Shown: piece by piece, positions 3,920 through 43,472 of the stretch
How positions within the stretch are numbered: position 1 is the stretch's first letter
Layout of the letters: each line of letters opens with the position of its first letter
Assembly (NCBI GenBank): GCA_964016885.1
Contig: OZ024755.1
Location: 11,594,001-11,658,000 of the forward strand
Length of the DNA: 64,000 nucleotides
Origin: Eledone cirrhosa
Taxonomy: Eukaryota
Reading direction: 5' to 3'
Made by a program: the position numbers and the translations under genes
Notes under the pieces: generated by a model
The model's input: only the letters and a program-made list of their open reading frames with translations
Database searches by the model: none
Told to the model about the DNA's origin: nothing

Positions 3920-4261
3920 CATATTGTTCATTTATGTTCAAACACGGACAAACGTGCTACCCAAGGTTTCAAGGCCCAAATTTGACCATACTTCCAGAAT
4001 AAAAGAGGCATCAAATTTGTGATCTTTCTTCCGGCGATTATACGAGCTGAAGAAAGGCCACACATTTGATATCTCTTACACACACACAAATATCTATATA
4101 AGCATACCTGTTGCTTGGGTTTGTGTGATAAACACACTAAACATGCTCTGATTTAAGGAATTATTTGTTATTAACGAAGCTTCCTCCACGTTATATTAAG
4201 GTTGTTTTGATATGGCAACAGCGTTGGTGTAACTTCGAAATAAAGACACTTTATTAATAGC

Positions 4262-26049: not shown

Positions 26050-27458
26050 TTTATATAATAATCCACCATAAATTTATATTAAAAAAAAAAGAGCAAAGGA
26101 TGTGACCAAATTCTACACGCGTGGCTAGGCTGTATACCTCAGCTGTGTCCTGTGACAAGATGACGAAAGGTTAGTTTCAGAGAACGAAGAGCGACACCGC
26201 CTACATCAGTTACTTCACCTATTGGGTCTCCTTTCGAGGTTGATATGCACTCGTTCCAATTTTACGGACGAAAACGGCTGTACGTAGAAGGAGGATAAGG
26301 AGGTTTCGAAAGCAACTTGTGCGAAAGGAAAACGGTCAGCCAAACCCCAGTACTTGGGACATGGCGAAGGGTGTTACGAGAGGTGGTATACGGATTTGTA
26401 GACAAAGTGATTAGAAGGTTTACATTTTAATATTTATATTTATAAAACAAATAATGTTTTTTTTAATCATATAACCAGGGCCGGATTCAGGCGGGTTGAT
26501 ATCAACAGGGTCGAGGTATTTGTTTGTTGGTGGGTGGGAGTAATCAAAATAGGCATGGATTAACTATGAAATGTTATTTGATAGGATGCTATGTTACAGT
26601 ATTACAGATGCCAAACGTTAATAAAGCCACACTAATATAGGGGAACTATGTCAACCATGCTATTACAAGAAGTCACAAACAAACAATTACCCCGAATTCG
26701 TTCAAAAATAATGGGGATAAAATAACAATCCAGGGCAATATCCATATCCATATACGTATATATATATATATATATTACGTATGTACACACACACACACAC
26801 AAATAGATTAAAAGAAAAGGGGAAAAGAAAATAGAAAGACATGGCGGAATTTTGGAAGAAGTTATTAACATATATACGAGCTGTCACAAAACACGAGGGT
26901 TTCTATGTTAAGCTATGTGGGTATACTCATTGTATATATGTGTGCGTGCATGTATATATATATATATATATATATTTATGTATATATATTTATGTATATA
27001 TACATATATATTTATGTATATATATATATATTTATGTATATATACATATATATTTATGTATATATATATATTTATGTATATATATATATTTATGTATATA
27101 TATATATTTATGTATATATATATATATATATTTATGTATATATATATATATATATTTATGTATATATATATATATATATTTATGTATATATATATATATA
27201 TATTTAAGTATATATATATATATATATTTATGTATATATATATATATATATTTATGTATATATATATTTATGTATATATATATATATATATTTATGTATA
27301 TATATATTTATATATATATATTTATGTATATATATATTTATGTATATATATATTTATGTATATATATATTTATGTATATATATATTTATGTATATATATA
27401 TTTATATACATATATATATATATATGTATATATATATTTATGTATATATATATTTATG

Positions 27459-27489
<31 letters not shown>

Positions 27490-27620
27490 ATTTATGTATA
27501 TATATATATTTATGTATATATATATATATGTATGTATATATATATATATATTTATGAAGTAATTCCGTCGGAAAAGTCCAGGAAAAAAGAGTGCTCTATG
27601 TAGGTAACAGAGCTTAATAG

Positions 27621-27860
27621 TTATGTAATAAACAACATAAGGCAATTATTCCATTTAACAGTGGTTTCTTAAAAGCAAAGAATTTTGCTTGGAATCATCA
27701 GAATGAAAAAATCCTGGTCTGTTTATTGAATTTGGATTTTAAAAACCAAATTCAATAAACAGACCAGGATTTTTTCATTCTGATGATTCCAAGCAAAATT
27801 CTTTGCTTTTAAGAAACCACTGTTAAATGGAATAATTGCCTTATGTTGTTTATTACATAA
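27621..27860. mobile_element. 240-bp near-perfect palindrome, putative head-to-head pseudo-LTR pair (family D)
   Basis: 120-bp arms with no spacer, centred on TTAA at 27739-27742. One mismatch seen (27736/27745). Confidence 0.85.
27773..27832 (+). ncRNA. Hammerhead-like motif, family D (mirror copy on minus at 27649-27708)
   Basis: UUUCAUU-CUGAUGA-UUcc AAGCAAA auuc UUUGCUU uuAA-GAAA-ccacug-UUA-AAUGGAA. Stem III is 1 nt out of register. Confidence 0.5.
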
Positions 27861-27993
27861 ATATATATATTTATGTATATATATATATATTTATGTATAT
27901 ATATATATTTATGTATATATATATATTTATGTATATATATATATATATGTATATATACATAAATATATATATTAATGTATAAATATATATATT

Positions 27994-28040
<47 letters not shown>

Positions 28041-28122
28041 GTATATGTATATATATATGTATTATATATGTATTATATATATGTATTATATATATATGTA
28101 TATATATATATGTATATATATG

Positions 28123-28164
<42 letters not shown>

Positions 28165-28390
28165 TTTATGTATATATATATTTATGTATATATATATGTA
28201 TATATATATATATATATTTATGTATATATATATTTATGTATATATATATTTATGTATTAGAAAGTGGTTTTTTTTACAAAATGAAAAATAACCGGTGTCC
28301 TACACGAGTGAAAGTATAAAGAAAAAGGGATTAAATCGAAAATGCAACTTGAGTCTTATTTTAAAAAAAAATATATATATTTATTTGGTT

Positions 28391-28428
28391 CCTTTACCGG
28401 TTTCGCAGTTCTTCTGCTTTTCAAAAGG
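28391..28428 (-). ncRNA. Minimal type-I hammerhead ribozyme motif, family E (U3-A8 variant)
   Basis: Minus strand: CCUU-UUGAAAA-GCAG aagaa CUGC-GAAA-CCGG-UA-AAGG, then 'aaccaAATAAA' and (TA)n. Confidence 0.8.
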
Positions 28429-28891
28429 TGAGTTGAGATGGAGAGTCTGTGGTTTTTCTCACATCTGGTTGGTCTCTGAATGTTACTTGTTTTATATGGA
28501 ATGTATACATATATTTATGTATATATATATATATATTTATGTATATATATATATATATATATATTTATGTATATATATATATATATTTATGTATATATAT
28601 ATATATATTTATGTATATATATATATATATTTATGTATATATATATATATATTTATGTATATATATATATATATTTATGTATATATATATATATATTTAT
28701 GTATATATATATATATATTTATGTATATATATATATATATTTATGTATATATATATATATATTTATGTATATATATATATATATTTATGTATATATATAT
28801 ATATATTTATGTATATATATATATATATTTATGTATATATATATATATATTTATGTATATATATATATTTATGTATATATATATATATATT

Positions 28892-28932
<41 letters not shown>

Positions 28933-28991
28933 GTATATATATATATTTATGTATATATATATATATATTTATGTATATATATATATATATT

Positions 28992-29028
<37 letters not shown>

Positions 29029-29043
29029 GTATATATATATATA

Positions 29044-29132
<89 letters not shown>

Positions 29133-29135
29133 GTG

Positions 29136-29168
<33 letters not shown>

Positions 29169-29255
29169 GTATATATATATATATATACATATATATGTAT
29201 ATATATATATATATATACATATATATGTGTATATATATATATATACATATATATA

Positions 29256-29352
<97 letters not shown>

Positions 29353-29407
29353 GTGTATATATATATATACATATATATATGTGTATATATATATATATAC
29401 ATATATA

Positions 29408-29507
<100 letters not shown>

Positions 29508-29546
29508 CATATATACATATATACATATATATATATACATATATAC

Positions 29547-29595
<49 letters not shown>

Positions 29596-29596
29596 C

Positions 29597-30079
<483 letters not shown>

Positions 30080-30154
30080 TACACATATATATATATATAT
30101 ACACATATACACATATATATATATATATACACATATATATATATATATATACAC

Positions 30155-30233
<79 letters not shown>

Positions 30234-30247
30234 TATATATATATATA

Positions 30248-30291
<44 letters not shown>

Positions 30292-30313
30292 CACATATAT
30301 ATATATATATATA

Positions 30314-30411
<98 letters not shown>

Positions 30412-30419
30412 CACATATA

Positions 30420-30455
<36 letters not shown>

Positions 30456-30461
30456 CACATA

Positions 30462-30541
<80 letters not shown>

Positions 30542-30554
30542 TATATATATATAT

Positions 30555-30590
<36 letters not shown>

Positions 30591-30591
30591 C

Positions 30592-30654
<63 letters not shown>

Positions 30655-30655
30655 C

Positions 30656-30726
<71 letters not shown>

Positions 30727-30785
30727 GTATATATATGTATATATATATATGTATATATATGTATATATATATATGTATATACATG

Positions 30786-30817
<32 letters not shown>

Positions 30818-30818
30818 C

Positions 30819-30865
<47 letters not shown>

Positions 30866-30918
30866 TATATATATATATATATATAGATATATATATATAT
30901 ATATATACATATATATAC

Positions 30919-30949
<31 letters not shown>

Positions 30950-31181
30950 ATTATGTATATACATATTTATGTATATACACATTTATGTATATACACATTT
31001 ATGTATATACATATTTATGTATATACCTATTTATGTATATACCTATTTATGTATATACCTATTTATGTATATACATATTTATGTATATACATATTTATGT
31101 ATATATATATTTATGTATATATATATTTATGTATATATATATTTATGTATATATATATTTATGTATATATATATATATATT

Positions 31182-31228
<47 letters not shown>

Positions 31229-31359
31229 GTATATATATATATATATATTTATGTATATTTATTTATGTATGTATATATATATATATTTATGTATATATAG
31301 TTATGTACATTCACACATATATACACATATATATATACACACATTCATATATATATATT

Positions 31360-43272: not shown

Positions 43273-43472
43273 NNNNNNNNNNNNNNNNNNNNNNNNNNNN
43301 NNNNNNNNNNNNNNNNNNNNNNNNNNNNNNNNNNNNNNNNNNNNNNNNNNNNNNNNNNNNNNNNNNNNNNNNNNNNNNNNNNNNNNNNNNNNNNNNNNNN
43401 NNNNNNNNNNNNNNNNNNNNNNNNNNNNNNNNNNNNNNNNNNNNNNNNNNNNNNNNNNNNNNNNNNNNNNNN
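43273..43472. other. Assembly gap (200 N)
   Basis: A run of exactly 200 n, which looks like a fixed-size scaffold join. Confidence 1.

Follow-up and report, generated by a model that had tools for sequence, protein, structure and literature searches.

The window, a stretch of 64,000 nt of the genome of Eledone cirrhosa, carries on its minus strand a minimal hammerhead motif of 38 nt that lies within the truncated 3′ end of a Penelope-like element (PLE). This inserted piece, 247 nt in length, is held in turn by a host microsatellite tract. The features of the locus are collected in Table 1.

Table 1. Features of the locus, with positions counted from the first letter of the window.
Feature	Position	Strand	Basis
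Minimal type I hammerhead motif with U3–A8 core, palindromic 6-nt stem III region, and GUA site	28391–28428	minus	Sequence, descriptor, folding
Core strand, U3 to A9 (U3 = 28424, A8 = 28419)	28418–28424	minus	Sequence, descriptor, genome counts
Stem II, 4 bp, with G10.1–C11.1 and a 5-nt loop	28405–28417	minus	Folding
Stem III palindrome, pairing between two copies	28396–28401	minus	Folding
Predicted cleavage position, 3′ of A17 (28395/28394)	28394–28395	minus	Hammerhead numbering on the sequence
5′-truncated 3′ end (pLTR piece with a long 'tail') of a Neptune-type PLE	28255–28501	minus	Identity of 94% with the pLTR of L068, a full-length copy
Internal AATAAA hexamer with a (TA)4 of the element behind it; does not mark where the insertion ends	28380–28385	minus	Sequence
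Candidate 5′-UTR intron of ~97 nt: donor GT at G16.2–U16.1, pyrimidine tract, TAG acceptor	28301–28397	minus	Prediction on L068
Host (TA)n-type microsatellite tract holding the inserted piece	26953–31358		Sequence

The motif and the inserted piece that carries it

Read on the minus strand, the motif consists of a 4-bp stem I, the core strand, stem II, GAA, stem III, and A17, and it conforms to the type I core (N3 U G A N N8 A ... G A A A ... U H) with positions 3 and 8 paired. The same parse, including the G10.1–C11.1 pair, the GUA site, and the location of the scissile bond, had been given in an earlier reading made from the letters of the window (the sequence-only reading), and the sequence is indeed as described there. 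No other match to the descriptor is present in the 64-kb window. Local doublet shuffling of the window, repeated 100 times, yielded two descriptor matches, both with positions 3 and 8 unpaired, and there were none in reversed genomic sequence totaling 600 kb. A chance origin of the motif was rejected. A scan of the 64-kb window with Rfam returned no hammerhead at the gathering score, and none was found among the 119 matches obtained at E values up to 10 in the region 27000–30000.

Stems I and II both form in the isolated 38-mer (pair probability 0.70–0.83). Every helix had been said to close, but this does not hold for stem III, which in a monomer would consist of A15.1–U16.1 and one C–G pair around a 2-nt loop that the energy model forbids; the fold with a one-pair stem III has an energy of +0.7 kcal/mol. 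The hexamer ACCGGU is self-complementary, with a computed self-duplex energy of −8.3 kcal/mol, and, since its intramolecular pairing would leave a loop of 2 nt, stem III is expected to form between two copies, as in hammerheads of the dimer type. In the best fold of the isolated 38-mer, U3 is paired with A17 (probability 0.56), so that the core is not left open, and the fold is no better than those of shuffled sequences (z −0.94, with 37 of 200 shuffles equally good). When the motif is folded within its 245-nt context, the probability of stem I drops to 0.0, whereas stem II persists as the sole stable helix (pair probability 0.93–0.94).

The AATAAA hexamer lies 5 nt downstream of the motif, as had been noticed before, although the TA repeat that follows it, previously given as (TA)n, is an internal (TA)4. 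The element runs on for ~125 nt to position 28255, where the host (TA)n starts, and AATAAA–(TA)n was thus rejected as its end. Nothing of the rest of the element was found in the 64-kb window beyond 28255–28501. A non-LTR retrozyme, characterized in a passage of a preprint (bioRxiv 10.64898/2026.07.22.740005) as a tandem arrangement of short non-coding units that all carry a hammerhead, was also rejected, since the window contains a single piece and the parent unit is 4.7 kb long and coding. Two further features of the window are a near-perfect fold-back of ~240 nt (27621–27860), which lies in the (TA)n tract that also holds the inserted piece and in both arms shows CTGATGA, a hairpin, and GAAAC in succession, and a gap of 200 N bases (43273–43472) within an 8-kb (TA)n tract.

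The sequence-only reading had considered this copy the best candidate for an active ribozyme. That it is active in place, locally selected, and able to cleave a transcript of the host in monomeric form is, however, very improbable. Its core is intact, its stem I is of the 4-bp type, and the swap of C3–G8 to U3–A8 had correctly been called a Watson–Crick change compatible with catalysis, as a passage of PMC3088659 confirms. On the other hand, stem III cannot close in the monomer, and the copy includes neither a promoter region nor an ORF. No family motif is found on the same strand within 100 kb on either side of the window, the nearest ones being on the plus strand at distances of ~63 kb and ~90 kb. 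Among 38 open frames of at least 75 aa tested in the window, none has a Pfam match above the cut-off (two weak matches fall below it), and no host gene is shown by them. Moreover, the core is identical in 11,539 places of the genome, where inserted copies decay neutrally. The 247-nt copy is likely inert on its own; cutting would need read-through transcription as well as a partner in trans. The motif at 28391–28428 is a real one, of a known kind, in an ordinary copy. Full-length elements, in which two motifs lie on one strand at a distance of 4.7 kb, are better candidates for an active ribozyme.

The parent element and its spread in the genome

A first look for the 191 nt around the motif gave 859 candidates in the genome, and the 40 places that were scored are 94–100% identical to it. 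The count of copies that retain the U3–A8 core, proposed in the sequence-only reading, amounts to the 11,539 already mentioned, obtained with an exact 30-mer of the core; a 36-mer allowing three mismatches is found in 20,469 copies, and reversed controls gave 0 in both cases. Copies of this family (family A) are often arranged in opposite-strand pairs ~100 nt apart.

Locus L068 contains a full partial-tandem copy with direct repeats 98.8% identical, motifs at 4061 and 8740, and a unit of 4,679 nt. The unit comprises a pLTR, ORF1, an ORF for reverse transcriptase (RT) and a GIY-YIG endonuclease, a 3′ region, and a second pLTR, with one same-strand motif in each pLTR; two complete same-strand motifs are present in 4 of the 12 long loci. 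ORF1 of L068 encodes 400 aa and has no match in a Pfam scan. ORF2, of 775 codons, overlaps ORF1 in the −1 frame; its C-terminal GIY-YIG domain scores above the Pfam cut-off, and its RVT_1 match reaches 26.8–28.8 bits against a cut-off of 29.6 (E ~1e-6). ORF2 also contains the motifs YLDD and DKG, as well as a CX4CX2C linker.

In the region of the two overlapping ORFs (L068:4259–7695, plus strand), a slippery U-UUU-UUA heptamer is located at ~5392, with a predicted hairpin 7 nt downstream, and the heptamer is kept in all 15 copies that cover this site. The overlap is a candidate programmed −1 frameshift, and the legend of Figure 1 in PMC8557442 refers to a frameshifted ORF1 in some PLEs.

The assignment to EN+ PLEs follows from the partial tandem arrangement of the pLTRs, inverted 5′-truncated copies, an optional tail, and RT combined with a C-terminal GIY-YIG domain. 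The features of a minimal, dimer-type PLE hammerhead are likewise present, namely a motif in both pLTRs (L068), a short palindromic helix III, and a short helix I. A CX2-5CxxC linker before the endonuclease and the DKG motif are the marks given for Neptune and Nematis in a passage of PMC8557442, and the Cys linker points to one of these two clades by that published motif definition. Fragments of more distant RT/GIY-YIG elements lie beside family A copies at L032:3451–4805, L032:7037–8210, and L034:1364–2077.

The 3′ ends of 56 motif copies in 41 loci fall mostly into two classes, 26 of them long and 23 short, while 4 extend into ORF1 and 3 are of other kinds. Both fixed end points after the motif join (TA)n, and in run contigs loose ends pass into (TA)n at the same two end points.

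Taken together, the 38-mer is very probably the minimal pLTR hammerhead of a high-copy Neptune-type PLE, likely inert in the truncated copy and predicted to be weak in full-length elements, where it would be helped by dimerization or by a protein. The endonuclease of the element would nick (TA)n, and reverse transcription would start at one of two internal points, which explains the tails; it would usually stop early and leave behind thousands of short ends such as 28255–28501. Where one transcript carries two motifs, stem III may form by pairing of their ACCGGU palindromes, and cleavage at the GUA would then set free an RNA of unit length. Cleavage of dimers by PLE hammerhead variants was reportedly described in a paper of 2017.

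Variation among copies and families

When family A copies with a single change are set against the 11,539 exact ones, 99 differ only at position 3, 47 only at the free position 7, and 46 only at position 8, while the C3–G8 form, with both changes, is found 0 times genome-wide. The sequence-only reading had taken the double change as a sign of selection for function and had named random variation at positions 3 and 8 among homologous copies as the result that would speak against it. Such variation is what family A exhibits: positions 3 and 8 mutate as freely as position 7, there is no signal of selection on the 3–8 pair within the family, and inserted copies decay without regard to function. 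As no C3–G8 copies exist and changes at 3 and 8 are no rarer than at 7, the U3–A8 pair is inherited and uninformative about the copy at 28391–28428, for which selection was rejected.

Seven of the 99 U3-changed copies, with U3C, lie on one strand in a tandem array on C1 (G000:C1:348863669–348949714), mostly ~9.6 kb apart. This array amplified a copy with a broken core.

The comparison between families was based on a descriptor that left the letters at positions 3 and 8 unconstrained and that does not admit families B and C. It detected five motifs in unselected genomic sequence of 600 kb, four U–A and one C–G, and in the targeted loci 73 motifs, 69 U–A and 4 C–G, with some copies counted twice. 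Reduced to eight distinct motif types, four have U–A at 3–8, four have C–G, and none is mismatched. Across families, then, the 3–8 pair covaries and looks maintained, so that the earlier claim of its maintenance stands between lineages but not at the locus itself. Other motif types are present at L034:3629, L035:5489, L161:2057, L170:1172, L027:1911, and L097:3223, three with U3–A8 and three with C3–G8. Two related families (59% and 48% protein identity) also have U3–A8, with different stems II and a different position 7. Because U3–A8 is common to three related families, the swap is old in the clade and was inherited by the copy in the window; it would have been fixed in the ancestor of the clade and copied along.

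The sister families also bear on whether cutting is still required. Family B (L080:2911–2955, plus strand; 59% protein identity) is present in 4,046 genome copies and keeps U3–A8. It is characterized by A13C, found in 99 of the first 100 copies listed among the 4,046, by a 3-bp stem I made entirely of A–U pairs, and by a covarying fourth pair in stem II, which is U–A instead of the G–C of family A. Changes of A13 cost 10–100 fold in activity according to a passage of PMC4075628, and the family B ribozyme is probably impaired. As this high-copy family carries A13C, amplification may not need cutting; young sister families of one genome that differ by A13 versus C13 offer a natural comparison by which the importance of cutting could be judged. 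In family C, U3–A8 and stem II are kept with no evident stem I. In family A itself, 14 of the 56 copies that belong to the two commonest types have lost the outer pair of stem I, and in run X1 this pair is broken in about half of the contig depth.

We can speculate on these grounds that the motif in this clade is vestigial or structural, that it no longer needs to cut, and that it persists because it binds a protein as a fold or because other pLTR signals overlap with it. This possibility, which we regard as rather doubtful, agrees with the amplification of family B, in spite of A13C and its short A–U stem I, to 4,046 copies or more, with the loss or shortening of stem I in family C and in a large part of family A, and with the mispairing of U3 with A17 in the predicted fold. 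It also agrees with the passage of PMC11167929 in which insertion of the PAc element in vitro is unimpaired by hammerhead mutants. What argues against it is that family A retains every core letter, that positions 3 and 8 are paired in all eight motif types, that stem II covaries between families A and B, and that the families differ at position 7 but preserve the pairing of 3 with 8.

In addition to being a cleavage site, the GUA triplet may serve as a 5′ splice site. The 3′ strand of the hammerhead would then be the donor of a 5′-UTR intron, with GUA as the first three intron bases, and two outcomes would compete: splicing would yield mRNA and destroy the ribozyme, whereas cutting after intron position +3 would destroy the donor and keep the intron in the template. 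Such a switch is unlikely, though it has several points in its favor. In L068, the GT at 16.2–16.1 is followed by AAAG, a tract with 74% pyrimidines, and a TAG 97 nt on, and no ATG precedes the start of ORF1, 171 nt on. Family B, read by eye, has GTAAAA at the same place, TACTAAC, and a CAG ~105 nt on, and in another family GTGATA occurs within stem I, together with a branch-like motif and TAG. Introns in the 5′ UTR of pLTRs are known in PLEs (passages of PMC2377424 and PMC8557442), and the 3′ end of an intron of D. virilis abuts helix I (passage of PMC4209133).

Against these points, the junction spliced at the 97-nt acceptor has 0 copies in the genome, an absence that is not decisive, since retention of the intron would also leave no spliced copies. 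The candidate intron joint is likewise absent among the 13 joints listed in contigs from four of six runs compared with L068:3700–5700; these runs are not on record as RNA, and such contigs cannot show RNA ends. Families C and D do not have a good donor or acceptor, the motif of L161 has GUC, and, counting further families for donor- and acceptor-like signals, two are similar and three are not. As U16.1 is obligatory in the ribozyme, only a few donor letters coincide, and they do so in AT-rich DNA. A donor within the cleavage triplet did not appear among the papers listed in literature searches, as judged by titles and the opening of abstracts. If the overlap is true, it would link the ribozyme, with a mechanism, to the unexplained retention of introns in PLEs.

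Comparison with known hammerheads and PLEs

As a minimal pLTR hammerhead, the motif adds one host and one family to the known U3–A8 hammerheads of PLEs. The natural covariation of C3–G8 to U3–A8 was reported in 2011 and stated to be active in vitro, in passages of PMC3088659 that do not concern the pLTR motifs of PLEs; family A shares this covariation with the natural hammerheads described there. The same source, in part, treats repeat-type motifs of Aedes and Nematostella as inactive and thought to need dimers. In PLE terminal repeats, U3–A8 was reported in 2014, with ~1,300 hits in Schistosoma, and the descriptor used had itself missed this form (passages of PMC4209133). This bears out the earlier claim that CUGANGA-only searches overlook U3–A8 hammerheads, which they consequently undercount, with more than 20,000 copies in the present genome.

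The passages of PMC4209133 on PLE hammerheads describe motifs with no activity as monomers and weak activity as dimers, and family A fails the stem III test for a monomer, as PLE hammerheads of the dimer type do. Common to both are a type I motif in the pLTR with U3–A8 missed by the standard descriptor, a short helix I, G10.1–C11.1, a palindromic 15.2–16.2 region, mostly solo copies, and opposite-strand pairs 100–700 nt apart. In family A, helix II has 4 bp and follows A9 directly, whereas in Schistosoma it has 7–8 bp and an unpaired base; the small palindromic helix III of family A resembles that of the Drosophila, rotifer, shrimp, and mosquito variants. Family A is also young and uniform, in contrast to the heterogeneous family in the same passages.

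With Neptune and Nematis EN+ PLEs, as far as described in parts of PMC8557442, family A shares the C-terminal GIY-YIG domain, the CX2-5CxxC linker, DKG, a bias toward microsatellites, partial tandem and inverted arrangements, and a hammerhead near the 3′ end, a likeness at the level of described features. The retention of 5′-UTR introns in the pLTR is another trait recorded for PLEs, in a passage of PMC2377424.

A further related system is Poseidon PAc of Anolis, for which passages of PMC11167929 report that the hammerhead cuts only with its protein, that tails mark the start sites of reverse transcription, and that hammerhead mutants have no effect on insertion in vitro, with 0 RNA-seq reads ending at the site. 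Like PAc, family A carries its hammerhead in the pLTR, shortly before the coding region begins, and it shares with PAc the presence of two 3′ end points ('tail') and an AT-rich insertion target. PAc differs in having C3–G8 and a single ORF whose start lies within the ribozyme, whereas family A has U3–A8, two ORFs, of which ORF1 begins ~170 nt past the cleavage site, and a Cys linker.
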